From Pirellulales bacterium (lineage in GTDB: Bacteria; Planctomycetota; Planctomycetia; Pirellulales; JALHPA01), in contig JANRLT010000053.1 in the NCBI GenBank assembly GCA_033762255.1, forward strand, positions 4,803 through 68,802: DNA of 64,000 bases, written 5' to 3'. A program made the translations under genes and the position numbers. Positions 4,336 through 51,249 of the stretch are shown here, one piece after another. The first letter of the stretch is position 1, and every line of letters starts with the position of its first letter. The notes beneath the pieces are model-generated. The model searched no databases and was not told the DNA's origin. It saw nothing but the letters and a program-made list of their open reading frames with translations.

Positions 4336-6363
4336 TTGCAGTTAATCATGCTCAGTCAAGTATTTAAATACAGCGCGATTTTCCTGTTGTCGCTCTGTTG
4401 TTCGTTGCCTGCCATGCGGGGAGAACTTTTTTGGGATGATGTCCCGTTAATCCGCGAAAATCCAGTCTTGCGCGATACGGCGGGACTGGCAAATATCTGG
4501 TTGGGGCGGGAAACGGTTGATTATTTTCCACTGACTTATACCGTGTGGTGGGTGTGCTATCAAATTTGGGGAGACTGGCCGATAGGTTACCACCTGTTTA
4601 ATGGCCTGCTCTATGCCTTCGCTTGCTGTCTGATTTATCGCGGCCTAGTGTGCTGGAAAGGTACCCAACCTTGGTTTTTTGCCGCTTATTTTGCGGCGCA
4701 TCCCCTGAATGTCGCCTCCGTGGCCTGGATCAGTGAAGGGAAAAATTGCGTCGCGTTGGTCTTATATATCTCGGCCTTAAACCAGTTGGCACGGGCCACC
4801 GGAACTTCCGGCCAAGCACGTTGGTGGTGGGCGGGTGTTTTGGCTGCTTTAGCGATGCTGGCCAAACCCTCCGCGGTAATGCTGCCCGTCGTGGGTTGGT
4901 TGCTCTGCGCCTGGAATGGCCTGGGACGCGACCGCCGCGTGCTGATTTGGACTGGTGGTTTAACGGCCTTTGCCTTGGTGGTCGCCTGGCTTACCATTCG
5001 CACCCAGGCGGATGAAAACTTTGCCCTCATCACCAGCGGCCCTGTCGAACGTGGGCAACGCGTCGGTTGGATCGCTTGGTGGTATCTGGGGAGGATGCTT
5101 GTTCCATTCTATCAACCACTGTTGGAAGAGCGCTGGGCCTTGGATTCCACCGACCCCGTAAATTGGCTTCCCTTGGCGGCGTGGCTTGGGTTGGTTATCG
5201 CATTATCGTTTTTTTGGCGATCGAATGCTTGGAGTCGCGCGCTGCTTTTATCCCTCACACTGATGCTAGTTAGCCTGTTTCCAGTATTGGGACTATTTGA
5301 TATGCGATTTCAGCAGTACGCTCATGTCGCCGACCATTTGGGGCAATTGGGTTTGGTGGGGCTGGTGATTGGCTTGTCAGTCGGGTCCAAGGCGATTCTG
5401 AATTCCGTTACCGCCAAACTCCCCCGACTACTCTGGGCAGAATTATTTTTTAAGGGATTGCAGGCGTTTGCACTGGTGATACTAGCGAGCACATCCTGGC
5501 ACCGAGCTGGCCTCTATGCCACGGAAGAACGCTTTTGGTCCGCCGCCGTTGCCCAGAATCCTTTGCAGGGACTGGCGCATTTTCATTTGGGCACGCTGTA
5601 TGAGCGGCAAAAGAATTACGCGCTGGCCGCTGACCATTTCGAACTCGCATTGCAGTTGGAGCCGCTGTATCCGCCAGCCGCGCTCCGCTGGGGAGTGATG
5701 CTGTATCGGACGGGGAAATTAACGGCGGCCCGGCGGGAATTGCAAAAATACACCGCCCATACACCCGAGGCGGAAGCGTATTATTTGCTGGGGGAAATTG
5801 CCGCCCAGGAGCGGGATTGGCCCACCGCGATCCAAAATTACCAGTCGAGCGCAAAACTAAAATCCGATAATGCGGGTGTGTACTTTTCCTGGGCGATTGC
5901 CGAGCGAGAACAACAGTCCTGGCAGCAAGCGCGGGATTTGCTGCAAAAATCGCTGGAAATGGAAAAAAACGGACTAACGTATTTTGAGTTGGCGGAAGTT
6001 TACAAACGGACGGGGCGGTACGCTGAAAGCCTAAAATATTATGAACAGGCGTTAATATTACTGCCGGAACACCAAGCGGCATTAAATAATTTCGCCTGGC
6101 TACTATGCACATTACGTGATCCGGCACTGCGTGACCCCGCGCGGGCCGTGCAACTGGCGCAGCGGGGTGTGGCGGCTAGCCAGGGTCGCGATCCCAATAT
6201 ATTAGATACGTTGGCCACGGCGCATGCGGCGGCGGGAGACTGGAATTCCGCGCTTGCCACATGGGCGAGAGCGATTGCATTGTGCGAAGGACCGGAGTTA
6301 GCGCCGCTACGGATGGAGCTAGAGGCGAAACAGCGGGAGTGGTCTCAGCAAAAGCGGGAATAA
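4336..6363 (+). CDS. Polytopic membrane protein with C-terminal TPR repeats (GT-C/PMT-ArnT-like N-terminal domain)
   Basis: 675 aa, with about 10 hydrophobic segments in the first 400 aa. Repeated TPR-like units follow (HFHLGTLYERQKNYALAADHFELALQLEP, AYYLLGEIAAQERDWPTAIQNYQSSAKL, YFELAEVYKRTGRYAESLKYYEQALILLP). Confidence 0.7.
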   Translation: MQLIMLSQVFKYSAIFLLSLCCSLPAMRGELFWDDVPLIRENPVLRDTAGLANIWLGRETVDYFPLTYTVWWVCYQIWGDWPIGYHLFNGLLYAFACCLIYRGLVCWKGTQPWFFAAYFAAHPLNVASVAWISEGKNCVALVLYISALNQLARATGTSGQARWWWAGVLAALAMLAKPSAVMLPVVGWLLCAWNGLGRDRRVLIWTGGLTAFALVVAWLTIRTQADENFALITSGPVERGQRVGWIAWWYLGRMLVPFYQPLLEERWALDSTDPVNWLPLAAWLGLVIALSFFWRSNAWSRALLLSLTLMLVSLFPVLGLFDMRFQQYAHVADHLGQLGLVGLVIGLSVGSKAILNSVTAKLPRLLWAELFFKGLQAFALVILASTSWHRAGLYATEERFWSAAVAQNPLQGLAHFHLGTLYERQKNYALAADHFELALQLEPLYPPAALRWGVMLYRTGKLTAARRELQKYTAHTPEAEAYYLLGEIAAQERDWPTAIQNYQSSAKLKSDNAGVYFSWAIAEREQQSWQQARDLLQKSLEMEKNGLTYFELAEVYKRTGRYAESLKYYEQALILLPEHQAALNNFAWLLCTLRDPALRDPARAVQLAQRGVAASQGRDPNILDTLATAHAAAGDWNSALATWARAIALCEGPELAPLRMELEAKQREWSQQKRE

Positions 6364-7865
6364 CGCCAGCGGCGAAAAGCGGCGACCGCCACGAGTCCGA
6401 TGACACCGACAATGGCGCTAGGCTCTGGTATGGCCAGAATGTCGGAGTAAAGGAGGCCGTCGGTGCCGTCGGTGAAGGCAGCATAAAAATACGTCCGATT
6501 ATTTTCGTCGATGCGCGCCAAGATATCGGGATTGATAAATGAGATTGTTCTCGATGTGCCATCCGGCAAATCCACCACATCCCCAGGTTTGGCTATCGTA
6601 TGAAAGCTGCCATCGTTCAATCTGGCGACGAGTAGACCAAGATTTAGGTTTGCGGGATCATAAGTATAGCGAAATAGCACGTCTTGATCGTTGCTGATCG
6701 TAACGCCCCTGTGACTGATATACTTTTGGGTATGTTGCTCAAAGCCGGGCAGCGTAAAAGTGTGATCAAAGAGCTTTATGGTTGAACCATTTGCGTCTAA
6801 CTTGTAGAAATAATATTCCCCTGAAATGTGATTGTTCGTAGGTTGATAGGCGGCAAAAAAGTTTTCGCCTCCAGCTTGATATGGATTGATTGTGTAATTT
6901 AATAGTTGTTTGGCGGGATCATCAGGCAATGTGGAAAAAGAGTAAATATCCCTATTTGTGTTGCTATTTAAATCATATTCTTCTCCGATGATCGTGCTTA
7001 TACTATCATCACGTCGAAAGATACTTTGGATTTTCGAATTAGCGATCGTACGTGGATACAGTATAGATTCAGACGTGCCGAAAGGGCGAGTTTTCAACAA
7101 ATGAATTGTATTGCTCAGGTCATTACGATACCACAAGCTAAATGTACTTGTGTTAAATGAAGTAGACACAGCAATATACTCGTGGTTCGATAGCATTTGA
7201 GAAAATGTCGCGGAATCAGTCTGAATCGCAGGATTATTTGTGTCAGTCAGTGGAAAAGAACTTGCAAATGTTTTTACCAAGGTGCCATCAGGATCTGCAA
7301 ATCGCATTCTTTGTGATCCCGTGAGAAACTCGCGAAGAACTACCCAGTTTCTCTCAAATCGAGCATTTGAAATCCCGTTTACTATAGCATTATTTGGGGT
7401 CCCAGGGGCTGGATCGCCAATCTCTTGAAAAGTACGGAAATTCCCCGGTGTGCCAATGGTTAATTTGTTCTCCGCAAAGAAAATACTGGTTTCTTGAGTC
7501 GGATGCAAATGATACGAATTGGTGTTAGTAAAATATTGCGTGGTCACTAAGTCGATTTTGGAACCATCAGTAATATAGTAAAGGTCTAGAGGTTCTTGTG
7601 CTATAGATTGATTATTTTTATAGCCCAGTAAGAGAATTCCTTTCGACGAAAATACTATTCCTTGTGAACCAAATGAAGGGTGAGTGAACACCACCCCCGG
7701 AGTCCGGCCCGGTACCTGCATGCCGGTGTAGATTATGGGTTTGATCTCGCCGGCGGGACAGACTGTGGTACCTAAAATAATTAGAATTAACCAACTTGGA
7801 GTCATTGCCAAGCAGGTTCCAAGAATGGAGCTGCAAAGTCTGAGGTATGTGTTATGATCAAGCAT
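6345..7865 (-). CDS. PEP-CTERM sorting-domain secreted protein (paralogue A)
   Basis: 506 aa with a signal peptide. The C-terminus is FTDGTDGLLYSDILAIPEPSAIVGVIGLVAVAAFRRWR, i.e. a PEP motif plus TM helix plus basic tail. It is visibly more AT-rich than its neighbours. Confidence 0.7.
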   Translation of the reverse strand: MLDHNTYLRLCSSILGTCLAMTPSWLILIILGTTVCPAGEIKPIIYTGMQVPGRTPGVVFTHPSFGSQGIVFSSKGILLLGYKNNQSIAQEPLDLYYITDGSKIDLVTTQYFTNTNSYHLHPTQETSIFFAENKLTIGTPGNFRTFQEIGDPAPGTPNNAIVNGISNARFERNWVVLREFLTGSQRMRFADPDGTLVKTFASSFPLTDTNNPAIQTDSATFSQMLSNHEYIAVSTSFNTSTFSLWYRNDLSNTIHLLKTRPFGTSESILYPRTIANSKIQSIFRRDDSISTIIGEEYDLNSNTNRDIYSFSTLPDDPAKQLLNYTINPYQAGGENFFAAYQPTNNHISGEYYFYKLDANGSTIKLFDHTFTLPGFEQHTQKYISHRGVTISNDQDVLFRYTYDPANLNLGLLVARLNDGSFHTIAKPGDVVDLPDGTSRTISFINPDILARIDENNRTYFYAAFTDGTDGLLYSDILAIPEPSAIVGVIGLVAVAAFRRWRYSRFC

Positions 7866-7934
7866 TTGTAGTATCCTTGTTGAATGGTAGTTTGCTTCAG
7901 GAGCTTTTACGTGGAGAATAGACTGGTTGTGTTA

Positions 7935-9488
7935 CTACCTTGCTTTTGGTTCGTCGATTTTTTTACGACGACAGCGAAAGAACACCCAACCGAGAGCCAA
8001 GCTGCCTCCGATCAAGCCCAGGTGAGCAGGTTCGGGCACGGCCAAAATATCGGAGTAGAGCAGGCCGTCGGTGCCGTCGGTGAATGTGACTTGAAAGTAA
8101 GCCCGATTCCACTGATCGATGCCAATCACTTTCACATGGTTCTTAACTGTGCGACTGGTCCCATCGGGAAGATCGACGACTTCGCCGGGGTTGGAAATGG
8201 TGACGAATGTCCCGTCACGTTTTCGGGCAACGACATAGGAATTGTTGGTAGCGGGATCATTATCCGTATCGTAACTGAATAGGATATCATTTTGATCCGA
8301 TAAATGAAGATTAAAGGTATAGATATACTTAGTCGTATTTTGCTCGTGATTGGGATGCACAAAGTCATCACCAAAAATGCGGGTGAATGTTGCGTCCGAA
8401 TTAAACGTATACACAGTGGCTTTGTCACGTTGACTAAACTTGGAAAAGCTAATCCATGTTGTATCATCATAAACGCTTTTATACATACCATATTGAGTCT
8501 GGCCAATCGGGATGCTCGAATCACCGGGCCAAGTACTGGTTAGGAATACATCCGTGGGGATTCGCGTGGATGTGTCATATGTCACCGTTTGTAAATTATT
8601 AGGTGTTGTGTAGAAATAATTGATCGTCTGGTTGGTTCGCAAGGCAGTGAACGCGGCTCGACTCGTGTCACTTCCGCTAGGTAGGCTACCAATTCGATAG
8701 TTTACGCCATCCAAATGATACCAAACCGAATTTTCTACCGAATCATAGGCGGTGTATTCCGTAGCCGAGAGCAGTCGAGTTCTAGAAGCACGATTCGTGT
8801 TAAACGCCGGGTTAAATGTATCGGTTATTGAGAAGGGGAATTGCGGTAACACAGATAATGTAGTTCCGCTTATGTCAGTCACTCGTGTACGGCCACCTGG
8901 GCTAAGTGTGGTTTTTTCAAAAAGTTCTAATTGGTTTTGCGTAATAAAATTTACCGCGGAAAACTCTGTCACCAAGTCATTACTTGGCGTGCCGTTGGCC
9001 GCCACACCCACTTGCTGGATATTGTTGAATGCTCCTGGTTTGCCAACGAATAAGTTGCCTTCTTTTGCATATACGATGTTTTCACCCTGAGGCTGCGCGG
9101 CATTATAAAACTGCTTAAAGCTAAATGCCGGCACATTCAGTCCAGTAGCCCGATTGTAATAAATCATTGCGTAATTATTAACCGGATCATTTGTGTAATA
9201 ATTGCCTTGCAGCACGCCCAGACTGGAAAAATTAAAAAAGTTGGAAGTAAAATAGTATGGTGCAAACACCACCCCCGGTGCCAGACCCGGCACCTGCATG
9301 CCGGTGTAGATGATGGGCTTGATCTCGCCGGCAGTTGAATTGGTCGGCGTAAACAGGCCCAGGCAAATCAGGACCATCCCCCAGGCCAACATCCCACTTG
9401 CCAACTTGGGCCAGTGTGGCATGCGCCGAGGCAACATGCCAGAATGATGCAAGCCCAAACCGTTAATCGTAGTCAAAATCCGCCCCAT
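7935..9488 (-). CDS. PEP-CTERM sorting-domain secreted protein (paralogue B)
   Basis: 517 aa. The C-terminus is FTDGTDGLLYSDILAVPEPAHLGLIGGSLALGWVFFRCRRKK. It shares GEIKPIIYTGMQVPG..PGVVF and VVDLPDGTSRT with paralogue A. Confidence 0.7.
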   Translation of the reverse strand: MGRILTTINGLGLHHSGMLPRRMPHWPKLASGMLAWGMVLICLGLFTPTNSTAGEIKPIIYTGMQVPGLAPGVVFAPYYFTSNFFNFSSLGVLQGNYYTNDPVNNYAMIYYNRATGLNVPAFSFKQFYNAAQPQGENIVYAKEGNLFVGKPGAFNNIQQVGVAANGTPSNDLVTEFSAVNFITQNQLELFEKTTLSPGGRTRVTDISGTTLSVLPQFPFSITDTFNPAFNTNRASRTRLLSATEYTAYDSVENSVWYHLDGVNYRIGSLPSGSDTSRAAFTALRTNQTINYFYTTPNNLQTVTYDTSTRIPTDVFLTSTWPGDSSIPIGQTQYGMYKSVYDDTTWISFSKFSQRDKATVYTFNSDATFTRIFGDDFVHPNHEQNTTKYIYTFNLHLSDQNDILFSYDTDNDPATNNSYVVARKRDGTFVTISNPGEVVDLPDGTSRTVKNHVKVIGIDQWNRAYFQVTFTDGTDGLLYSDILAVPEPAHLGLIGGSLALGWVFFRCRRKKIDEPKAR

Positions 9489-10436
9489 AAATAATCCTTT
9501 GCTAAAAAAGTGCCCATGGCCATAGCAAGTCCGTACCGATTCACACCGTAGCGGGAAAACACTAACTCATCACGCCGCCAAGGAGATGTCGCTTTTACTA
9601 TAGTAAAAAGCGACGGTAGGGAACCGCAGTAGCTTGCTCGCAAAGTGAATGAGAATTGCCCCGGGAGACCGAGGTAAACGACACCCGGGTCACATGAAAT
9701 GCCGACACATAACTCTACTTAAACTAGACGGGCTTCCGACCAAATGCAATCAATATGACGGAAAATATGTGTTAGAAAATTGTTTGGCTTGTCCGGAGAG
9801 CACTTAAAAGGGGCGGTTTTCATGGTTTGGGGCAAGCCGCCGGGGTGGCACTAGCGAATTTTCCCCACATTATTCTAGCATTGCCCCATTCTTGCTGACA
9901 GCCATTTCGTTGCACCCCCACGAACAACCATAAACTTGGCCATTTTGTGAAACAGTCGTGTGCCACTGGTGGAACACCAGTGCCGAGACGGGAGTTTGAT
10001 AAATTGAAACGGACAGGAATTCAGAACAAGTCGTGAGTAAGAATTCCTAAGCTATTGGGCATCGCACACCCTGTGGCAAACACTGGCAGAATGCCAGTGG
10101 CACACTCCGTCTTTTTCATAATGGCTAAGTCTGGTGCAAGGAAATGGAACAGGTAAGCAAAGGTCAGCACTGGTTGAAAATGGAAACTTCAACGGTGCCA
10201 CCCGGCCGGTTGACTTCCAAAACACCGTCAGCGAACTGGATGAAACGAACAACTTGGCCATCGTCGAGCGCTCGGCTCTTGATGCGGTCGCCCAGTGAGC
10301 TTCGTCGAGCCCCTGATATCCACGCTTCGCCGCGACGCTCGTCGGGCCGATTGGCCAGCGGGCGTCGTGGTGTTTTTACTTTAGGCCGAATGCTTCCTGT
10401 TTTTAAGAAAGGGTCGTTTTCCAAGGAGGACAATAG

Positions 10437-10566
10437 CGGGTAGCCCAGGCAAAAAATCGGGTACCCAAGGAACTTGTTCCTTGGCCGCGCAGCGGTGGGA
10501 AGCATTTCTTCAAATATCTCCGCTGCGTCCATTCGGTTTCTTGTGCTGCGCACACCGGAACAAGTT
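10437..10566. repeat. 130-bp dispersed repeat, copy 1
   Basis: CGGGTAGCCCAGGCAAAAAATCGGGTACCCAAGGAACTTGTTCCTTGGCCGCGCAGCGGTGGGAAGCATTTCT...CGCACACCGGAACAAGTT. It contains the perfect hairpin CCAAGGAAC-TT-GTTCCTTGG. Confidence 0.9.
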
Positions 10567-10762
10567 TTAGAGCAACCCTCGATTGGCGGTAATTCCGCAA
10601 AAAATAAGAAAAGCTCCCCGTGCCAAACCCTTTACGAACCGATTCTCTGTTTTGGATTACTGTAACTGCTGTAGTGGCGTGTCCTTGGGGAGTTCGAGTC
10701 TGATTTGGTGGCAAAAACCGAAACAGACGGGTTACAAAACCTGCCCAGGCTAGTTAACAACG

Positions 10763-10954
10763 ATGAATTACCACGAGGAGCGGCCGCACCAGGGAATCGG
10801 GATCGAGAATGAGCTTTTGATTCGCGCCAAGCAACCCGGACGGCCGAAGACCAAGTGTGGCAACCTGCGGGACGAGGCTGTTCCGCTGAACGATATCCGC
10901 TGCAAACAGCGGTTGGGAGGGTTGCTCAAAAGTTACAGCCGACACGCGGCGTGA
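10763..10954 (+). pseudogene. 3' remnant of an integrase-core (rve, IS481/IS3-like) transposase gene
   Basis: The translation NYHEERPHQGIGIENELL...IRCKQRLGGLLKSYSRHAA matches the conserved C-terminal tail of rve-domain transposases (Y..ERPHQGLGN ... RLGGLL.YY.R.A). An in-frame TAG lies directly upstream, and no catalytic DDE region is present. Confidence 0.6.
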
Positions 10955-11056
10955 TGGACGCTGGTGGCAACCTGCAAGACGATCATCTTGGCGAAGAACA
11001 ACTGCGTATCCCGCACGCGCCGAACGGGAAAATCCGTGCTTCACTGTGCGTGTGTA

Positions 11057-11386
11057 GCGGAATGTTTGCAAATTCTTCATGGGTTGGAAGTGAGTAACGG
11101 CGTTCACGCCTCGTCGGTCTTGCGATTTGTCAGATTCGATTGCGTCATTTTTGGGGTTACACTAATTTTGGCACAGGGCAGCGGCTCTTGTGCGCGGGAA
11201 TGTTTGCAAATTCTTCATGGGTCGGCAGCGAGTAACGGCGTTCCCACCTCTTCAGGTTTACGATTTTTTAGATTCGATTGCGTCATTTTTGGGGTTGTAC
11301 TAATTTTGGCACAGGGCGCGGCGATGTTTGCAAATATTTCTGCTCCATCCAGTGGGCTTCTTGTGCTATGCACACTGGAACAAGTT
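11057..11386. repeat. Tandem repeat of about 136 bp (2 full units plus a diverged third unit related to the 130-bp repeat)
   Basis: Units start at 11057 and about 11194 (GCGG(G)AATGTTTGCAAATTCTTCATGGGT...GATTCGATTGCGTCATTTTTGGGGTT..ACTAATTTTGGCACAGGGC). A third unit (11323-11386) aligns to the distal half of the 130-bp repeat. Confidence 0.8.
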
Positions 11387-11478
11387 CCAGTGCTACCCAA
11401 TTGGTGATTAGCTGGGCTACCCGCTAGCCAATGGGCGATAAGCTGGGCTACCCGCTCAGGACGCCACCCCTACTTGAC

Positions 11479-11769
11479 TCATTTTGGCACAGGACGCCTA
11501 GCAAACGAAACTAAAAAAGTATCCTGAAGTTCCTCGCACGTGCAATTGATCAACTCAAAATGCATTAAATGATACCAATTTTCCGGATTGGGATCGCCAT
11601 GTGCTAGACTTGACCCTTTAACCCTAACCGACTTTGTAGGATTGTGAACGATAGTGAGTATCTCGCCATCCATGATGCGATCCAATCCTTCTAAATACTC
11701 TACCCGGGCTGTAGCAGTTAACCATCGTCCAGGCTTTGCCCATACGCATTTTAAAGCGGCAGTTGGCAT
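11479..11769 (-). CDS. Putative immunity protein of the adjacent toxin (family not recognised)
   Basis: A small ORF lies immediately downstream of the toxin stop (a 4-nt gap if it starts at MPTAALKCVW). The track ORF (to 11835) would overlap the toxin by 62 nt. The call rests on position only. Confidence 0.4.
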   Translation of the reverse strand: MPTAALKCVWAKPGRWLTATARVEYLEGLDRIMDGEILTIVHNPTKSVRVKGSSLAHGDPNPENWYHLMHFELINCTCEELQDTFLVSFARRPVPK

Positions 11770-11773
11770 TTGG

Positions 11774-12760
11774 TCACAATGAATCCAAAGATTGTTGAAA
11801 ACCTGTAAGTCTTCCAGTGATAATCTCGACTTCATTTTTGGAAATCCCCCAGCTGTTAGCGTTTTTGATTAGCTTCTGTGCCGCCTCGATTTCAGCAAGC
11901 AAATCAGCTTTTGGTTTACCGAACTCTTCAATCCACTTCTGATATCTGCCAGTACGACGTTGCGTATTATGAATAAACTCCTCAAAAACAGAAAATGTCG
12001 GAGCATTAGGACAAAGAATGATTTTGCCAAGTCCCTCACTACTACCTAGTGTACCAGGTCCGTTGGTTGAGAAAAGGTGCATGGCAGCATCTTCATCGTC
12101 CCAAATCTCTCCTCCACCTCCTCGCTTCTTTCCGGCATTAGATTCAAATGCCTTTTTCATCTGCTCATAGCGCCGCCTATCCATAGCTGGCAACTCGCCT
12201 TGGCCTTGACTAAGTAATCCCCTGTTTGGGACCACATCATCCGCTTTGGTCAACAATTTCTTTCCGCTTCTAACCACCCTCCCACTGACAAACGGTACAA
12301 AGCTGGCACCCGCGGTCAGCACCCGATCAAAAGTCGAGAGCTTTTCTCCGGTGCAAATGTCCACGCCGGTGATGACTTCCTGCCAATCCTTGGCGTCGCC
12401 CAGGCCCGGCACAAACCCGGCCGCGAAACTGGTCCAACCGGCCACCTCCTGCGTTTCTTGCCAGAATGCGCGGTCGCGCGCGGTCGCCCGGTTGGCGGAC
12501 TCTTGCAAGCCTTGCATGTACTCGGCGTTCTCACCATCCATGTAGGAATAGAGTAAGCCGTCGGCGGCGATCCCCTGGCCATTGTATTGCTGCCGCAGGT
12601 CGCTCCAATTGTACTCGTCCAGCAGGGCATCTTGTTGCGACTTTAGTTCCTTGTAGCGATTGAGATTTTCGATGATGTGAATTTTATTGGCGTTGTACTC
12701 CTCCATCAGGCGATTGCGGTCCGCCGCGCTCAGGCAGCAAGCGGTTTGCAATTGCAGCAT
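11774..12760 (-). CDS. Polymorphic-toxin-type protein with a pre-toxin TG (PT-TG) domain and an unassigned C-terminal module
   Basis: GFVPGLGDAKDWQEVITGVDICTGEKLSTFDRVLTAGASFVPFVSG (nt 12281-12418) fits the PT-TG domain, which precedes toxin modules. About 165 aa follow as the C-terminal module. The 264 codons upstream in the track ORF cross a repeat and the 3' end of the HemN-like gene and are treated as non-coding. Confidence 0.6.
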   Translation of the reverse strand: MLQLQTACCLSAADRNRLMEEYNANKIHIIENLNRYKELKSQQDALLDEYNWSDLRQQYNGQGIAADGLLYSYMDGENAEYMQGLQESANRATARDRAFWQETQEVAGWTSFAAGFVPGLGDAKDWQEVITGVDICTGEKLSTFDRVLTAGASFVPFVSGRVVRSGKKLLTKADDVVPNRGLLSQGQGELPAMDRRRYEQMKKAFESNAGKKRGGGGEIWDDEDAAMHLFSTNGPGTLGSSEGLGKIILCPNAPTFSVFEEFIHNTQRRTGRYQKWIEEFGKPKADLLAEIEAAQKLIKNANSWGISKNEVEIITGRLTGFQQSLDSL

Positions 12761-12837
12761 GATTTGGAGATTGCGTTCATGCCGTTCGGTGGTATACGTC
12801 ACCAAGCCCGTAATATTTCTGTCGTGCGCGATAAAAT

Positions 12838-12967
12838 CGGGTAGCCCAGGCAAAAAATCGGGTACCCAAGGAACTTGTTCCTTGGCCGCGCAGCGGTGGG
12901 AAGCATTTCTACAAATATTTCCGCTACATCCAGTGGGCTTCTTATGCTGCGCACACCGGAACAAGTT
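12838..12967. repeat. 130-bp dispersed repeat, copy 2
   Basis: Same orientation as copy 1. The first 75 nt or so are identical and the remainder is roughly 85% similar by eye. Confidence 0.9.
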
Positions 12968-13084
12968 TAGTGCCATCCGCAATTGTAGCAGGCACCGTCC
13001 CTGGTGCCGTGATATCCCTTCGCCGGTGTGCGGCTTTGTAATCCAACATGACCAGCGTTCAGGGGGTTTGCACCCCAGGCTAGA

Positions 13085-13190
13085 ATTCTTGCGCCGCTGC
13101 GCGGCTAAAGGAGAGAGGGGGGGGGTTGTGTACCCCGGGTAGTCGCTGCGCTCCAACCCGGGGCTAAGTGCTGTAACCGCTTCGCGGTAG
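13085..13190. repeat. 105-bp dispersed repeat, copy 1
   Basis: ...GCCGCTGCGCGGCTA...GTGTACCCCGGGTAGTCGCTGCGCTCCAACCCGGGGCTAAGTGCTGTAACCGCTTCGCGGT, with the hairpin CCCCGGGT...ACCCGGGG. Confidence 0.85.
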
Positions 13191-13361
13191 AAAGGCAATT
13201 GATGCAAAAACCAAATACCAGTAACCAAAAACCAATCCGGCGAGTAAAACTCGCCGCTACGGGCTGATCGGCGATTGGAACTCGCCGCTACGGGCTGATG
13301 GGCGACGGCGTCGCCACCTCCAGTTTTCTCACATCCACGCCTCCGCCCGCTTTTCGCTCCT

Positions 13362-14753
13362 CTACGTGTACCGTACTCCTTGGTGTTGGGCCTCAAAGAA
13401 CGCTGGCAGCAGACCGTCAACGCGTAGCAGGCCCGCGCGGGTGAGCCGTAAGATCGCGGTGTTTCGCGGATCAGGCCCCTCCCATTCCAAATACCCCTGC
13501 GCCGCGTAGTCCGCCCAGACGTCGGCCCATTCCTGGCGGATATCGACGCCAAATTTGGACTGAAAATAATTGGTATCCAGTTTACCCGTTTTCAGTTGCA
13601 AGATCATTTCCCGCACCAGCAACTGGTGTGGCGTGGGGGCCAAGCCACGGGCCAGTGGCAGACGTCCCTCGTTTAGGGCGCCTAGGTAGGGTCCCCATTC
13701 GGCTAGATTTTGATAATGGACATCGCTGACATGGCCAAAGCTGGCCACCCCCGTGGCTAACAAGTCGCTTCCCCGCCACAGATTATCCCGATAGCTAAAT
13801 TTGACCCCGCGGCCGCGCTTGACCAGCGTATAAGCACTGCTGATGTCGTATCCCCCGGCGGTCAACTGTTCATAGGCGTACTCCATCCATGTCCGCTTGG
13901 TTGGCCAGTCCGCCACTGGTAATTCCACCTGGTTGCCCAAAATATCCTTGGAATAAACCGTGTTAAAGGGTAACTCCAGTTGGTAAATCGTGACGCTATC
14001 CGGACTAAGCGCCAGGGTGCGGGCAATGTTATCTTGCCAGTTTTCCCAGGTCTCTCCCACCATGCCGGCAATCAGATCAATATTCACGCTGGCAAATCCG
14101 GCGTTAACGATCCAGTCCCACGATTTGTAGACCTCGGCTGATAAATGCGCTCGCCCGTTTTCCTCGAGTACCGCATCGGAAAAATTCTCCACGCCCAGGC
14201 TCAGGCGGGTAACGCCCAACTCGCGCAGGGTTTTGATTTTTGGCTCGGACAGGGTTCCCGGTTCGCATTCAAAGGTGACTTCCTCGGCCTGGTCCCAATT
14301 GATATTAGCCCGCAACCGATCAACCAGCGACGTCAGTTGCTTGCCGGATAAAAACGATGGCGTCCCCCCGCCAAAGTAGACAAACCGGAAGGGCCGTTCC
14401 CCCATGACCGGCAGACGGCTAACTAATTCGATCTCGTGGGCCAGGCCCGCCACGTAATCCTCGACCTCGTGGGAGTTTTTATCGGTGTAAACGCGAAAAT
14501 AGCAAAATTTGCACCGCTTGCGGCAAAAGGGAATATGCAAATACAGGCCCAGGGGGCGGAGCGAGTTGGCCGGCTGTGGTGCGGTGGTGACACCGTCCGG
14601 GGCGCTGGCGGTCGCCGGATTGCGGTTAGGGAGGGGCGGCGAATGGAGCGCGGCGGTGACGGCTGGCAGTTCTTCCGCCGTCCATTGGGAATACGGGGGA
14701 TAATTGCTGATAAAATAACTGCCAACTTCGGTCTTTAGTGTGGCGGTGGACAT
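13362..14753 (-). CDS. HemN-family radical SAM enzyme (oxygen-independent coproporphyrinogen III oxidase-like)
   Basis: LYLHIPFCRKRCKFCYF contains the CxxxCxxC radical SAM motif, YFGGGTPSFL is present, and the 463-aa length is typical of HemN. Confidence 0.85.
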   Translation of the reverse strand: MSTATLKTEVGSYFISNYPPYSQWTAEELPAVTAALHSPPLPNRNPATASAPDGVTTAPQPANSLRPLGLYLHIPFCRKRCKFCYFRVYTDKNSHEVEDYVAGLAHEIELVSRLPVMGERPFRFVYFGGGTPSFLSGKQLTSLVDRLRANINWDQAEEVTFECEPGTLSEPKIKTLRELGVTRLSLGVENFSDAVLEENGRAHLSAEVYKSWDWIVNAGFASVNIDLIAGMVGETWENWQDNIARTLALSPDSVTIYQLELPFNTVYSKDILGNQVELPVADWPTKRTWMEYAYEQLTAGGYDISSAYTLVKRGRGVKFSYRDNLWRGSDLLATGVASFGHVSDVHYQNLAEWGPYLGALNEGRLPLARGLAPTPHQLLVREMILQLKTGKLDTNYFQSKFGVDIRQEWADVWADYAAQGYLEWEGPDPRNTAILRLTRAGLLRVDGLLPAFFEAQHQGVRYT

Positions 14754-20255: not shown

Positions 20256-20840
20256 TGTCAACAAAGCCGCCGCTGGCAGCGGCGGTGTGTGGCTGTAGGT
20301 CCCGTCCGCCGGACGGGACTGCGGTGCTTGGTATTTGGTTGCTGGTTTTTGGTTGCCGCGACGCGTAGCGGAGCGCGTGCCTCTACCGAAGAATTCATTC
20401 ATCACGGAGGAGTGAGAGGAAAGACCGAGTTTTACGGAGAAAGCATTCTGTAGGAGGCGACTCTGTCGCCGAATATCCCGTAGCGGCGAGTTTTACTCGC
20501 CGTTTTGCCACGTCACGTCGGGTGGCGGGGGACTAGCTTGTGCAGCAATGTGGATCCAGGGGAGCGATATCTTTATAGCAAGCGTTTCAACCAAATTGCC
20601 TTTCAACCGCGCAGCGGTTGCGGCATTTAGCCCAAGGCTATTCAGCGCGTCCTGCAAGGTAATATCCCAAAGCCGCCGCTGGCAGCGGCGGTGTGCGGGA
20701 CACGGGAAAAAACGTAGGAGGCGACTCCGTCGCCGAATGTACCGTACCGGCGAGTTTTACTCGCTGTTTTGGCTCTGTACCGGCGAGTTCCACTCGCCGT
20801 TCTGGACATTGGTTAGCCGCAACGCGTAGCGGAGCGCGGC
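20256..20840. repeat. Mosaic array of at least five different short palindromic units (duplicated composite)
   Basis: AAAGCCGCCGCTGGCAGCGGCGGTGTG occurs at 20263 and 20669. GGCGACTCYGTCGCC occurs at 20456 and 20720. GGCGAGTTTTACTCGCC occurs at 20485 and 20749, with a variant at 20782. CGCGTAGCGGAGCGCG occurs at about 20361 and 20822. PAL-1 is at 20299. Confidence 0.85.
20299..20319. repeat. PAL-1 copy 2 (inverted orientation, loop GCC)
   Basis: GTCCCGTCCGCCGGACGGGAC, 44 nt downstream of the ppdK stop. Confidence 0.9.
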
Positions 20841-21065
20841 ATTTGGTTGAATGGATTAAAGCGTAGCGGTGTACTCTTACATTGGTCCCTCTTGCTTACA
20901 AAATTGCTCTCGATTCCCTCACGCAGGATTGACCTAAATCTAATTTTGTTGATTACTGTTTTTTACGACGGTAAGATACAAAATGTCGCTTTGTGGCTAT
21001 CCTGGTTATTGCGAATATTCCGGCACAAAACGTGTGGAATGTAATCTTTTGCGGCGGAGGGTGCT

Positions 21066-21512
21066 TTGCGTGGTTACCTGTGCGAACGCTGCTCGCTTGC
21101 TTTTGAGATCGGTGGGTATCACTTTTGGTCGCTTGACGGGAAATGCGATCAAGTGGTATGCCGCGCATGCGGCACTATGCACCGCCTCACTGAGCAGCAC
21201 GGACTCTGTCAAATCACGGCTTTATCCGGCCCGGTGTGGTCGCTGCCACTTGTCACTCGGATGACCGAGTTCGGGCACGAGTATACAGACTACGAATGGC
21301 CATTTACCGAGACTGATTGGCACCATGTAGGCCAGCACATCGGCGGCATCAAGGCGCTCGGGCAGTACAAGTGTAGCCACTGCGGGGCGGCAGGGCAAAA
21401 GCAGTCGCTAGAGTGGCCGCCGCACTCGGACGGGTTTTGGATTTCGTTCCGGGAAGTGTGCCCGCTGTGCGGCGGACCGATGCCGTTTTTGTTCGACTCA
21501 ACAATTAACTAA
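21066..21512 (+). CDS. Hypothetical protein with two CxxC...CxxC zinc-ribbon-like pairs
   Basis: 148 aa with a TTG start. Cys pairs: CERC...CRAC near the N-terminus and CSHC...CPLC near the C-terminus. No family recognised. Confidence 0.45.
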   Translation: MRGYLCERCSLAFEIGGYHFWSLDGKCDQVVCRACGTMHRLTEQHGLCQITALSGPVWSLPLVTRMTEFGHEYTDYEWPFTETDWHHVGQHIGGIKALGQYKCSHCGAAGQKQSLEWPPHSDGFWISFREVCPLCGGPMPFLFDSTIN

Positions 21513-21529
21513 TCGCGTACGTCTTAACC

Positions 21530-21895
21530 ATGCCACGAGATGCCGTTTCCTACGATGATGAGCAACAGCTTACAACATATATCTTTCACAATTACCCTAA
21601 CCTTCTCACACCACTGGAAGCACAAATCTACAAAGCCCTGCTCGCGGAATCAAAGGCAACACACTCAAGCAATATGATTGCATCAATACTTCGACAGCGT
21701 TGGAGCGTGACTGCTTCTCCAGATGTAGTCAACGCGCTTGCTAATGGTCCGGATGAGTTTCGTAACCGTGTTCGCAAACGAATTATTGAGGAGTGCGCGG
21801 AACAAATAATCATCAGACGCTGTCCAAAATGTTCGCGTTTGGTCGCAACCCCCAAGGCACAACAGTGTTTGTGGTGTGGGCATGATTGGCATTGA
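21530..21895 (+). CDS. Hypothetical protein with a C-terminal zinc ribbon
   Basis: 121 aa ending in RRCPKCSRLVATPKAQQCLWCGHDWH. It starts 18 nt after the previous ORF, so co-transcription is likely. Confidence 0.45.
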   Translation: MPRDAVSYDDEQQLTTYIFHNYPNLLTPLEAQIYKALLAESKATHSSNMIASILRQRWSVTASPDVVNALANGPDEFRNRVRKRIIEECAEQIIIRRCPKCSRLVATPKAQQCLWCGHDWH

Positions 21896-27320: not shown

Positions 27321-27393
27321 TGGAGACGAAGGGGATCGAACCCTCAACCCCCGGCTTGCAAAGCCGGTGCTCTCCCAATTGAGCTACGTCCCC
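27321..27393 (-). tRNA. tRNA-Ala (anticodon UGC), CCA not encoded
   Basis: GGGGACGTAGCTCAATTGGGAGAGCACCGGCTTTGCAAGCCGGGGGTTGAGGGTTCGATCCCCTTCGTCTCCA folds as a cloverleaf: 7-bp acceptor stem with G3:U70 (the Ala identity pair), D-arm GCTC/GAGC, anticodon stem CCGGC/GCCGG with loop TTTGCAA, and T-loop TTCGATC. Confidence 0.92.
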
Positions 27394-47475: not shown

Positions 47476-48825
47476 ATGCCAAAATTTGAACCAGTTCTCA
47501 TGGCCAATATGGGCCTACCCGATAGCCACACGCTGGCGGTGTATGAGTCCCGCGGCGGGTACGGGGCCTTGCGCAAGGCCATCCAGGAATTATCTCCTGA
47601 ACAAGTGGTGGAAACCGTCAAAGCCAGCGGCCTGCGCGGGCGGGGCGGAGCGGGATTTCCCACCGGACTTAAATGGACCTTTTTGCCCAAGAATCACCCC
47701 GGGCCGATCTATTTATTGATCAATGCCGATGAAAGCGAGCCGGGGACGTTTAATAATCGGTATTTGATGGAACTTGACCCGCATCAGGTGATCGAGGGAA
47801 CAATCCTCAGTTGCTACGCGACAAAGGCCACAACCGCCTACATTTACTTGCGGTACGAGTATCCGCTTTGTTGGCAGCGGCTGCAAAGCGCGCTGGATGA
47901 ATGCTACGCCAAGGGGTATCTGGGCAAGAACATCCTGGGGAGCGAATTCTCGCTGGATATTTATTTGCACAAGGGGGCGGGTGCCTACATCTGTGGCGAG
48001 GAGACGGGGTTGATTGAATCGCTCGAGGGAAAACGGGCGTGGCCACGAATCAAGCCCCCATTTCCCGCGATCGAGGGGGTCTTTCGCAAACCGACGGTCG
48101 TTAATAATGTCGAAACCGTCGCTTGCGTTACACACATTATCAATCGCGGGGTGGACTGGTTTAAATCGATCGGTGTGCCCGCCAATCCTAATGTTAAAAA
48201 CGACGCCGGCAGCTATGGACCAAAGCTGTATTGCCTGAGCGGACATATTAATAAACCCGGCTGTTACGAAGCCCCGCTGGGAATCACCTGCCGCGAACTG
48301 ATTGACGAATATGGCGGCGGCATCTGGAAAGGACGCAAGGGCAAGGCCGCCATTCCCGGCGGAATCAGTATGGGCATCCTCAGCGAGCCGGAATTTGACA
48401 CCCCGCTCGACTTTGGCTCCTTGGGTAAGGTGGGCTGCCTGGGCCTGGGGACCGCCGCTGTGGTCGTCATGGATGAAACCACGTCGATGGTGGACTTTTT
48501 GCACAATAGCTGCCAGTTTTTTAAACACGAAAGTTGCGGCCAATGCACTCCCTGTCGCGAGGGGACCGCCTGGGGGATGGGCATGCTGTCGCGGATCAAA
48601 GCGGGCCAGGGACGACTGCGGGATTTGGATTTGCTACTGGAAATTGGCGACACCATTGGCATCACACACGGAACAACGATTTGCGGATTGTCGGACGGGG
48701 CGGCCTGGCCGATTAAAAACGCGATTCGCAAATTCAAAGGAGAGTTCGAGGATTACATCAAACGCACCAACCCCCGTGGTTACGCCGAGACCCAGCCCGT
48801 GCCAGCCCTCGCGCTGGCGCATTAG
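47476..48825 (+). CDS. nuoF: NADH-quinone oxidoreductase subunit F
   Basis: GLRGRGGAGFPTGLKW, YLLINADESEPGTF, GAGAYICGEETGLIESLEG and ESCGQCTPCREG. Confidence 0.95.
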   Translation: MPKFEPVLMANMGLPDSHTLAVYESRGGYGALRKAIQELSPEQVVETVKASGLRGRGGAGFPTGLKWTFLPKNHPGPIYLLINADESEPGTFNNRYLMELDPHQVIEGTILSCYATKATTAYIYLRYEYPLCWQRLQSALDECYAKGYLGKNILGSEFSLDIYLHKGAGAYICGEETGLIESLEGKRAWPRIKPPFPAIEGVFRKPTVVNNVETVACVTHIINRGVDWFKSIGVPANPNVKNDAGSYGPKLYCLSGHINKPGCYEAPLGITCRELIDEYGGGIWKGRKGKAAIPGGISMGILSEPEFDTPLDFGSLGKVGCLGLGTAAVVVMDETTSMVDFLHNSCQFFKHESCGQCTPCREGTAWGMGMLSRIKAGQGRLRDLDLLLEIGDTIGITHGTTICGLSDGAAWPIKNAIRKFKGEFEDYIKRTNPRGYAETQPVPALALAH

Positions 48826-48860: not shown

Positions 48861-49529
48861 ATGTCTGTCACATTGACAAATCGATTGAACTTGGCCACCA
48901 CCGACACAATATTACGTGAGTTAACCACCATGACACGTGATATTGTATCTGGCGGTGATCCTACCCTGACCGCATTTCGTGAGCAAGCGGAGGTGTTGGG
49001 CGCGAATCCGGTCATCGTGGGCGGAGTGGCCGTGATTCATCATGGCTACCGGCGCACAACAGAAGACAGGGATGTTTTGTTGCTTCATCGAGAGGCAGAG
49101 GCCTTGGCTAATCACCTGATGGATGCACCTAATTGGGAAAGAGTGGAAATACGGCAATACGCATTTCTTTATCATCCCACGGGAATTCATGTGGATTTTT
49201 TAGTTTCCGGACACTTGATGCAGCTAGGCCGTCCCTATTTTTTTCCTGGTACGCATCAAATCGATGTTTCCGGTGAGGTTGCGGGGATTCCGGTGATTGG
49301 ATTACAGGATTTGATTTGGCTCAAGCTGGTGGCGGGTAGAATGCAAGATTTGGCTGATATTATGGAACTTTGCAAACGTCATTTACCCAACATCGACATA
49401 GCACGTATCCTGCAGTACTTGCAAAAGGAAGACGATGATTTACGTGAGAAATTGCTTGATATTATCAATCGAGTGCCGATAGAACTGGCGGGGGAAAAAC
49501 GTCTGGGACAAGATCATCCCGAAAGCTGA
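48861..49529 (+). CDS. Minimal nucleotidyltransferase-fold protein (DUF2204/AbiEii-like) inserted between nuoF and nuoG
   Basis: VIVGGVAVIHHGYRRTTEDRDVLL contains G[GS]...DxD, the NTase core. LIWLKLVAGRMQDLADIMEL is the GR.xD..D motif seen in this group. The gene is AT-richer than the flanking nuo genes. Confidence 0.55.
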   Translation: MSVTLTNRLNLATTDTILRELTTMTRDIVSGGDPTLTAFREQAEVLGANPVIVGGVAVIHHGYRRTTEDRDVLLLHREAEALANHLMDAPNWERVEIRQYAFLYHPTGIHVDFLVSGHLMQLGRPYFFPGTHQIDVSGEVAGIPVIGLQDLIWLKLVAGRMQDLADIMELCKRHLPNIDIARILQYLQKEDDDLREKLLDIINRVPIELAGEKRLGQDHPES

Positions 49530-49593: not shown

Positions 49594-51249
49594 ATGGGTA
49601 CGATCCTCATCGACAATATCGAAGTTCCCGTCGCCGACCATGAGCGGCTGAATGGCATTCAGGCCGCCGCCCGCGCGGGGGTGGAGATACCGCATTATTG
49701 CTGGCATCCCGGCCTGTCCGTGGTGGCTAGTTGCCGCATGTGCCTGGTCGAGACCGGCGCAAAGGACCCCGCCACCGGCAAGATCACCATGCTGCCGCGC
49801 GTCGTCCCCGCCTGCCAAACACCGGCCAAGGATGGCACGGTCTTTATCACCAATAGCGACAAGGTGAAGCAGTACCGCGCTATGGTCGAAGAAGACCTGC
49901 TCATCGACCATCCCATCGACTGCCCCATTTGCGACAAGGCCGGCGAGTGCCTGCTGCAAGATTATTATTTTGCGCATGGCCAGCCCGAACGTCGTGCGGA
50001 CCTCCGCCCCTTTACCAGCCGCCGCAAGGAAATGGGGGACACGGTGACCCTGTTTATCGACCGTTGCGTCATGTGCACGCGGTGCGTGCGCTTTACCCGC
50101 GAAGTCAGCGGCACCAGCGAACTGATGGTTATCAACCGCGGCAGCCACGAGGAAATCGACGTCTTTGACGGTTTCCCCTTGGATAACAAATTGTCGGGAA
50201 ATGTGGTCGACCTGTGCCCCGTTGGGGCCTTGGGTGACCGGGACTTTTTGTACAAGCAGCGCGTCTGGTTCATGAAAAAGCACAACGGCGTCTGCGCTAC
50301 CTGCGCCACCGGCTGTTCCATTACTATCGAGGAAAACCAGGATTCCGTCTTTCGGCTAAAGCCGCGCGAAAATCTGGAAATCAATAAATGGTGGATGTGC
50401 GACGAGGGTCGTTACAATTATGGTTACATCCACCAACCGGACCGCTTGAATGGACCGAAACGCCGCAAGGAAAAAGGGTACAACGCCCAGGATCTATTAA
50501 ATATCGAATGGTCCGACGTGCCGCGCATGGTCACCGCCGACATCCGGGCGGAGTTAGCCGGCGGAGGACGCCTGGCAATGGTCATTTCCCCCTTTCAAAC
50601 AGTGGAAGAAGCCTACCTGCTGTGCCAACTGGCCCGGTCCTTCGATCCGCAGGCCATCTTGGCCCTGGGCCCGGTTCCGGTTGTCGGCCAGGATGAAACT
50701 TTCCCCGGCGGGTTCACCATCCGGGCCGAAAAATGCCCCAATCGCCGCGGGGTAGAGGCGGTCCTGGCCCATTACGGCCCCATTTTGCCCTGGAACGACT
50801 TTTTGACCAAAATTCGCGGCGCCGCCAACGGCGAATCCTTGCGGGTGCTCTGGGTGGCTGGCGGATACCAACACCCGTGGATTGATGCCACGACGGCAGG
50901 GGCCTTTGCCCAGACTCCTTTGGTGATCACGCAGGATTTATTTGAATCTCCGCTGTCGGCCTATACGACTTACCAGCTTCCCGGCGGCGGTTATGCCGAA
51001 CGGGCGGGTTCCTACGTCAATTACAACCAGCGCTTGCAGTCCTTTTCCTGGGCGGTGCGCCCGCCAGCGGGCTGCAAGGTCGAAGGGCACGTCGCCTGGA
51101 GCCTGTTGGGTCGACAGGGGCTGTACAATGCGGGGGCCATTTTGCAAGAATTAGCGGCGGAGATTCCCGCGTTTAGCGCGGTGACGGGCCTGAACCCCAT
51201 TCCGCCGCAGGGGGTTGATTTACGAGTCAACCAATTGGCCGCGGTATAA
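49594..51249 (+). CDS. nuoG: NADH-quinone oxidoreductase subunit G (short form)
   Basis: N-terminal 2Fe-2S/4Fe-4S cysteines (CWHPGLSVVASCRMCLVE; HPIDCPICDKAGECLLQD; CVMCTRCVRF; CPVGAL) and a molybdopterin-like domain (CATCATGCS). Confidence 0.9.
   Translation: MGTILIDNIEVPVADHERLNGIQAAARAGVEIPHYCWHPGLSVVASCRMCLVETGAKDPATGKITMLPRVVPACQTPAKDGTVFITNSDKVKQYRAMVEEDLLIDHPIDCPICDKAGECLLQDYYFAHGQPERRADLRPFTSRRKEMGDTVTLFIDRCVMCTRCVRFTREVSGTSELMVINRGSHEEIDVFDGFPLDNKLSGNVVDLCPVGALGDRDFLYKQRVWFMKKHNGVCATCATGCSITIEENQDSVFRLKPRENLEINKWWMCDEGRYNYGYIHQPDRLNGPKRRKEKGYNAQDLLNIEWSDVPRMVTADIRAELAGGGRLAMVISPFQTVEEAYLLCQLARSFDPQAILALGPVPVVGQDETFPGGFTIRAEKCPNRRGVEAVLAHYGPILPWNDFLTKIRGAANGESLRVLWVAGGYQHPWIDATTAGAFAQTPLVITQDLFESPLSAYTTYQLPGGGYAERAGSYVNYNQRLQSFSWAVRPPAGCKVEGHVAWSLLGRQGLYNAGAILQELAAEIPAFSAVTGLNPIPPQGVDLRVNQLAAV

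Follow-up and report, generated by a model that had tools for sequence, protein, structure and literature searches.

Within a 64-kb window (the whole stretch of DNA that was analyzed) of a Pirellulales (Planctomycetota) metagenome-assembled genome, two adjacent open reading frames (ORFs) on the same strand, here called gene A and gene B, probably represent an old tandem duplication. We consider it likely that both encode secreted, PEP-CTERM-anchored β-propellers of about eight blades and that they form a lineage-specific, decayed offshoot of the NxxGxxAF/DUF7453 family, in which the conserved termini are the end motifs of that family. An earlier note on this DNA had described tandem PEP-CTERM paralogues of 506 and 517 residues with near-identical termini and diverged cores. 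The ORFs are exactly as it gave them and the products are paralogous, sharing 36% identity over 479 residues (BLASTP, E value 5e-69). The features of the pair are as follows.

6345..7865, minus strand: gene A, 506 residues; signal peptide, predicted degenerate 8-blade β-propeller, PEP-CTERM anchor (from the ORF)
7935..9488, minus strand: gene B, the upstream member of the pair, 517 residues; same architecture as A (from the ORF)
7686..7754, minus strand: N-terminal motif (N-motif) of A, residues 38-60, AGEIKPIIYTGMQVPGRTPGVVF; invariant columns; match of a repeat hidden Markov model (HMM) at residues 44-76
9264..9332, minus strand: N-motif of B, residues 53-75, AGEIKPIIYTGMQVPGLAPGVVF; predicted β-strand (E) at residues 56-61
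6618..7685, minus strand: core of A, residues 61-416; about seven predicted degenerate propeller blades, AT-rich
8232..9263, minus strand: core of B, residues 76-419; predicted degenerate blades, AT-rich
6432..6617, minus strand: C-terminal conserved module of A, residues 417-478, ending in FTDGTDGLLYSDILA
8040..8231, minus strand: C-terminal conserved module of B, residues 420-483; from windowed identity, hhalign and an AlphaFold2 (AF2) predicted local distance difference test (pLDDT) of 82-93
6345..6431, minus strand: PEP-CTERM sorting signal of A, IPEPSAIVGVIGLVAVAAFRRWRYSRFC plus stop codon; motif scan; predicted transmembrane helix 482-505
7935..8039, minus strand: PEP-CTERM sorting signal of B, VPEPAHLGLIGGSLALGWVFFRCRRKKIDEPKAR plus stop codon; motif scan; predicted helix 487-509

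Gene arrangement and divergence profile

Gene A lies downstream of B with a gap of 69 nt, and the two are probably co-transcribed. The intergenic sequence contains AAGGA about 8 nt ahead of the ATG of A, and a promoter and terminator scan of positions 5800-10600 gave a site count not above that of shuffled sequence. NCBI annotates A as hypothetical and gives B the name PEP-CTERM sorting domain-containing protein. Two plus-strand ORFs (6261-6542 and 7884-8282) were rejected as genes and are antisense shadows of A and B; their translations are alike because they lie antisense to the conserved C-terminal regions of the pair. No silent copies or fragments of either gene were found in the window by tblastn or blastn.

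The identity profile of the pair, computed in 30-codon windows, is strongly uneven, in agreement with what the earlier note had expected from this check. Amino acid identity amounts to 0.70-0.78 at the N-motif (AGEIKPIIYTGMQVPG..PGVVF), which stands right after the signal-peptide-like N-terminus and in A begins at the predicted signal-peptide cleavage site, and to 0.50-0.77 over the last ~90 residues (VVDLPDGTSRT ... FTDGTDGLLYSDILA[IV]PEP), versus 0.03-0.45 in the cores. The further claim that the DNA of the conserved stretches is alignable holds for two tracts, one of 68 nt at 89.7% identity (7687-7754 versus 9265-9332) and one of 81 nt at 79% (6420-6500 versus 8028-8108). These are the only alignable tracts of the two genes, and the claim fails for VVDLPDGTSRT, which is conserved as protein only.

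Termini as end motifs of the NxxGxxAF/DUF7453 family

The family assignment is given by the termini. PF24251 (DUF7453) matches A with 29.0 bits and B with 21.8 bits (gathering threshold, GA, 26.2), in both cases confined to the last ~80 of 460 model positions (380-459 for A), and the precomputed annotation agrees, with PF24251 on A and none on B. The TIGR05002 model (NxxGxxAF_repeat), which asks for multiple repeats of ~57 residues and at least 50 bits in total, has no match to A or B at E values up to 1; a canonical family member reaches 384 bits on it, with seven repeats. Canonical relatives, which include PF24251 proteins of Adhaeretor mobilis (Pirellulales) and of a Phycisphaeraceae isolate, open with '..RTVALTGxxAPGxxxGVxF' after the signal peptide. 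They continue with about eight tandem units of ~60 residues, predicted to build a β-propeller ('NxxGqvAF.A.L.G......GIW....gsL.LVARtGdqAPG...GvtF..F') and close with a last unit of the form 'GDxLEVaPGDfRTI ... FNDxGQLAFxAxFTDGSsGIFVSnlvAVPEPS'. In a collinear MAFFT alignment, GEIKPIIYTGMQVPG-PGVVF of the pair aligns to the canonical N-terminal motif and PGDVVDLPDGTSRTI...NRTYFYAAFTDGTDGLLYSDILAIPEPS to the canonical last unit. Moreover, when the pair was compared with 29 canonical proteins in hhalign, the last 128 columns matched with a probability of 99.4% and an E value of 6.5e-22.

The canonical proteins show the same conservation gradient: mean column identity falls from 0.35 at the N-motif to 0.22-0.30 across the internal repeats and rises to 0.43-0.56 in the C-terminal blade and PEP region. 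Therefore, conserved ends around a variable middle are a trait of the family, of which A and B show an extreme form. When 1.84 billion protein representatives were searched exhaustively with HMMER, using a profile built from A and B, no other full-length relative came up. About 140 proteins, mostly of 520-590 residues, match the C-terminal ~90 residues of the profile, and one of them also matches the N-motif. A word-indexed search gave A, B and one weak match only, and the scan of GTDB representative genomes gave no relatives of the pair.

The gene neighborhoods of canonical members differ from one another. In Adhaeretor mobilis (CP036263.1), two DUF7453 genes (10001-11794 and 20681-21794) lie less than 10 kb apart, which shows that canonical paralogues can be clustered too. 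In Phycisphaeraceae bacterium D3-23 (CP114179.1, 10001-21848), a canonical NxxGxxAF/DUF7453 gene stands directly upstream of an exopolysaccharide cluster with GT4, Bac_transf, WecG, Wzy_C, polysaccharide deacetylase and Wzz/AAA_31. This cluster holds Pfam families that Haft et al. tied to PEP-CTERM loci (PMC1569441); two of its genes that lack a Pfam match have no NCBIfam exosortase match.

Decayed repeats and predicted fold

The ~57-residue repeat is undetectable in A and B with TIGR05002. A custom repeat HMM built from canonical family proteins gave sums of only 32.9 bits for A and 14.5 bits for B over four weak stretches. Vestigial units occur at corresponding positions of the two proteins, namely unit 1, a 'GDPAPGTP' unit at A150/B161 (residues 150-171 of A) and a weak one at A384/B392 (residues 384-401 of A); the last repeat unit is detected in A only (423-467).

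The AF2 model of A (24-sequence alignment; pLDDT 73.7, predicted TM-score 0.70) contains only β-structure from the signal helix to the anchor helix. It has about 32 strands, which fall into groups of four apart from a single strand at the start and a last blade of three. Its C-terminal module has the highest pLDDT (89-93), with strands at 421-425, 438-444, 458-464 and 469-474. At the level of the model, A is thus predicted to be a toroid of four-stranded antiparallel blades. The model of B (pLDDT 60) is likewise all-β and has the same end architecture. The top 50 Foldseek matches of A in the PDB are all β-propellers (E values 3e-8 to 9e-7), among them sortilin/SorCS2, DPP-IV/8/9, prolyl oligopeptidase and the clathrin terminal domain, at ~10% identity and TM-scores of 0.3-0.47.

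The structure model and the repeat phase suggest why both ends might be conserved together. Grouping of strands by tight turns gives an internal blade order of [GvtF | GqvAF | GIW | LxLVAR], and successive blades are separated by the 'tGdqAPG' loops. IKPIIY, the first strand of A (41-46), is homologous to the 'LxLVAR' strand and lacks three preceding strands, and the last blade of A has three strands of its own (438-444, 458-464, 469-474). In the module at residues 417-478, FHTIA is the final strand of blade 7; it is followed by the hairpin with VVDLPDGTSRT and by three strands assigned to the proposed closure blade. IKPIIY would be the outer (D) strand of that blade, which suggests that both termini form a single closure blade of the 'velcro 1-3' type, lying five residues ahead of the PEP motif; larger propellers are commonly closed by a velcro arrangement (PMC8458387). 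Such a shared closure blade beside the anchor would explain the joint conservation of both ends. The first strand would join the final three directly before the anchor, and both ends would be retained together by purifying selection, which would act on ring closure as well as on the sorting signal. The remaining blades would meanwhile shed the repeat consensus and drift to AT-rich codons and to a sequence rich in Asn, Thr, Ser and Tyr.

Synonymous sites and gene conversion

The age of the duplication was assessed from codon choice at identical residues, with the expected codon differences derived from host codon usage. In the core, 51 of 93 identical residues differ in codon versus 53 expected, and in the C-terminal blade (C-blade) 27 of 47 versus 27.5. 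Within VVDLPDGTSRT 8 of 11 codons differ (7.0 expected), and a window of 17 columns centered there has 13 identical residues, of which 10 are encoded by different codons. The proportion of synonymous differences (pS) reaches 0.75 for the core and 0.77 for the C-blade, and the synonymous divergence (dS) is infinite. Synonymous sites are saturated across the genes and, therefore, the duplication is old. The saturation of VVDLPDGTSRT further implies that protein-level selection maintains at least that motif.

The earlier note had proposed end homogenization by gene conversion. Short conversion tracts, exchanged within the pair or donated by GC-rich canonical paralogues at other genomic loci, would have kept the ends alike and host-like in codon usage and left the cores free, and there are observations in favor of this view. 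At the N-motif only 5 of 20 informative codons differ versus 11.7 expected (nominal P 0.002), and at FTDGTDG..PEP 6 of 18 versus 10.8 (nominal P 0.018). Identical runs of 23 and 20 nt occur, and codon choice is shared position by position in the pair, for instance in CCC versus CCG (Pro) and GGC versus GGG (Gly). The GC content at third codon positions (GC3) of A also rises sharply at precisely the N-motif, to 0.73-0.77 versus 0.40 and 0.20 on its two sides, and the GC3 excess of the ends holds for every amino acid. Against it stand the full saturation of VVDLPDGTSRT and the C-blade as a whole, and a permutation scan without preselected regions, in which the window at the N-motif does not reach significance (P 0.29 at w=20) and the core contains the longest run of shared codons. 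Moreover, the tracts themselves retain a dS of about 0.65-1.2 and, therefore, any conversion was neither recent nor frequent. Finally, the same protein motifs are kept in unrelated genera, where exchange with A or B is impossible. Conversion may have contributed short, old patches, and the data neither require nor robustly support it; as the main cause of the conserved ends it is an explanation that we regard as possible, with considerable doubt.

The shared-codon run in the core comprises 10 identical residues (permutation P 0.04) at columns ~340-410, corresponding to roughly 6700-6900 and 8280-8500 of the window, and may be due to chance.

Compositional mosaic, import and selection

Both genes were said to be AT-rich and rich in Asn, Thr, Ser and Tyr compared with their surroundings, and this is the case. 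Their GC content is 0.437 (A) and 0.471 (B) versus 0.590 in the other 27 long ORFs and 0.56 in the whole window. Their GC3 is 0.434 and 0.508 versus 0.682±0.058, and the four residues make up 30-31% of the products versus 16.5±2.2% elsewhere. The comparison by region reveals a mosaic, with the following GC3 values (host mean 0.68).

N-motif: A 0.77, B 0.77
C-blade: A 0.56, B 0.61
Both ends pooled: A 0.61, B 0.65
Core: A 0.37, B 0.43

Ends and cores differ significantly (Fisher P 2e-5 for A, 1e-4 for B): the ends have 125 of 199 GC-ending codons versus 81 expected from core usage. Conserved columns inside the cores are only slightly richer in GC3, a difference that is not significant. At the protein level, Phe, Tyr, Met, Ile, Asn and Lys (FYMINK) account for 0.32 of the cores versus 0.19, Gly, Ala, Arg and Pro (GARP) for 0.20 versus 0.32-0.35, and Ser/Thr for 0.20 versus 0.11-0.145. 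Relaxed constraint under AT-biased mutation explains the cores, but not a host-like synonymous usage confined to the ends, which whole-gene import likewise leaves unexplained.

Recent import of a surface-protein cassette had also been proposed for this composition, and the pair or its AT-rich cores could have come, unameliorated, from a donor of lower GC. The GC3 of both genes lies 3-4 standard deviations under that of the other genes, no orthologue was found in any other genome, and the pair is located in a generally lower-GC, gene-poor stretch adjoining a PT-TG polymorphic-toxin gene. The remaining evidence points the other way. No relatives were found in plasmids, phages or GTDB representative genomes, and a set of 15 billion proteins yielded no sign of a donor lineage. 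Planctomycetota are the native phylum of the parent family, and at the ends of both genes GC3 is like that of the host. The pair is not flanked by an integrase, transposase or tRNA (Rfam and tRNA scans of the window gave only a tRNA-Ala, at 27321-27393), and the small ORFs at 10.1-11.8 kb have no Pfam match. In addition, the low GC3 resembles a long-term equilibrium of the locus rather than a recent arrival, because the two genes are both AT-rich despite the saturation of their synonymous sites. Horizontal import is thus, in our view, quite improbable.

Another explanation for the divergence of the cores would be diversifying selection, either positive or frequency-dependent, on exposed propeller surfaces (for example for the evasion of phages or grazers, or for the binding of varied ligands), with the closing blade constrained. 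It would fit the strongly non-uniform divergence along the pair, its surface-anchoring signals and the clustering of paralogues also in Adhaeretor mobilis. However, with pS saturated at 0.75 the ratio of nonsynonymous to synonymous divergence (dN/dS) is not computable, and the shift of the cores to AT-coded residues is predicted by relaxed constraint and AT-biased mutation alone. We therefore consider diversifying selection unlikely as the driver. More improbable than any of the above is that the termini of host-like GC3 serve as homology arms for the exchange of AT-rich cores among strains or family members. Were that the case, this would be a cassette-type locus of surface variation, beside a polymorphic-toxin locus and a glycosyltransferase gene of the GT39-TPR (tetratricopeptide repeat) type, the product of which may decorate the Ser/Thr/Asn-rich cores.

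Old duplication within a decayed branch of the NxxGxxAF/DUF7453 family remains the reading that we prefer, and several observations weigh against it. Purifying selection alone explains neither a host-like GC3 at the ends only nor the shortage of codon differences at the N-motif relative to expectation from codon usage. The hhalign match is significant for the C-terminal part only, the homology of the cores to the canonical repeats is drawn from weak HMM matches, and the core of B is poorly modeled (pLDDT 27-49). The velcro pairing was read only from the DSSP string and the repeat phase. Finally, no exosortase was found among the window ORFs of at least 200 residues, and a literature search returned no paper that mentions DUF7453.

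Export and sorting signal

At both C-termini a PEP motif precedes a hydrophobic helix, and a basic tail ends the protein. The TIGR02595 model (PEP_CTERM) gives 22.7 bits for B and 14.7 bits for A, with a cutoff of 16; the scores on PF07589 are 14.8 and 14.5 bits for the pair, both lower than the GA of 20.7. At the other end, each protein has a hydrophobic helix near its N-terminus (4-33 in A, 26-46 in B), after which comes CPA|GE or STA|GE, respectively, and signal peptides are predicted on this basis. By analogy with characterized PEP-CTERM systems, the proteins would be exported by Sec via the signal peptide and held transiently by the C-terminal helix. They would plausibly depend for their processing on an exosortase encoded elsewhere, and they might then be displayed at the envelope or in the exopolysaccharide matrix as a binding scaffold.

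Surroundings of the pair

The convergent neighbor at 4336-6363 (plus strand) overlaps the 3' end of A by 19 nt. Its product has a polytopic membrane domain of ~400 residues, with 'GELFWDDVPLIRENP' near the N-terminus, and TPR repeats. Homologues that align to ~95% of the domain at 30-36% identity often contain PF13231 (PMT_2) and have the source names GT39 or protein O-mannosyltransferase; the copy itself has no match in Pfam or PDB sequence searches. An identity as PrsT was rejected for this TPR protein (93.8 bits versus a cutoff of 312). As a hypothesis, this GT39-TPR protein may glycosylate the adjacent Ser/Thr/Asn-rich propellers.

On the other side of the pair, the gene at 11774-13552 (minus strand) encodes a PT-TG pre-toxin domain at residues 373-434, its annotated N-terminus being doubtful, and is followed by a small ORF (11479-11835, minus strand) that is a candidate immunity gene. 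The gene-poor stretch 10500-11500 has direct repeats of 121 nt (two copies, 88%), 75 nt (two copies, 77%) and 21 nt (three copies). One copy of the 21-nt repeat is at the 3' end of the 11479-11835 ORF, and the repeats look like tandem remnants of that 3' end. Further away, a DUF6036 nucleotidyltransferase-like gene (48861-49529, plus strand; GC3 0.47) looks inserted into the complex I (nuo) operon, between NuoF-like (47476-48825) and NuoG-like (49594-51249) genes.

Implications and comparison with known systems

The case of A and B indicates that near-identical ends and diverged middles in paralogues can reflect the end motifs of a repeat family, here probably the blade that closes the propeller ring together with the sorting signal, and need not mean gene conversion. 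The analysis connects the Pfam family DUF7453 with the NCBIfam NxxGxxAF 'choice-of-anchor' repeat, and the pair illustrates how far repeats can decay while fold and termini persist. The regional GC3 mosaic is the small puzzle that remains in an otherwise largely ordinary finding.

Among propellers of known structure, the pair is best compared with the velcro-closed DPP-IV (8 blades), prolyl oligopeptidase and the sortilin VPS10 domain, with which it shares a predicted all-β toroid of four-strand blades; the 1+3 closure suggested for A and B is also common among such propellers (PMC8458387). At the identity and TM-scores given above the resemblance is one of fold only, and A and B have no peptidase or other catalytic domain.

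With regard to PEP-CTERM proteins, for which enrichment in Thr, Ser and Asn and lineage-specific expansion of paralogues are known (PMC1569441), A and B are alike in the C-terminal PEP motif, hydrophobic helix and basic cluster, in the N-terminal signal peptide, in the Thr/Ser/Asn enrichment with few or no Cys, and in the lineage-specific paralogue expansion. They differ from those systems (PMC1569441) in that no exosortase or exopolysaccharide genes are seen in the 64-kb window, and in the PEP-CTERM HMM score of A, which is under the cutoff.

The closest comparison is with the TIGR05002/PF24251 family, as represented by Adhaeretor mobilis and Phycisphaeraceae D3-23. In A and B, in contrast to that family, the NxxGxxAF repeat escapes detection with TIGR05002 and the PF24251 match is limited to the end of the model. 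The cores are rich in Asn, Tyr, Ser, Thr and Phe, whereas those of the canonical family are rich in Gly, Ala, Arg and Pro, and the genes are AT-rich within a GC-rich genome. The pair has in common with the family a similar length (about 520-600 residues), the signal peptide followed by a '..TG..aPG..GVxF' start, the last-blade signature, the 'FTDGs.G..vS....PEP' ending with its PEP-CTERM anchor, a collinear alignment, the phylum and the tendency of paralogues to cluster.

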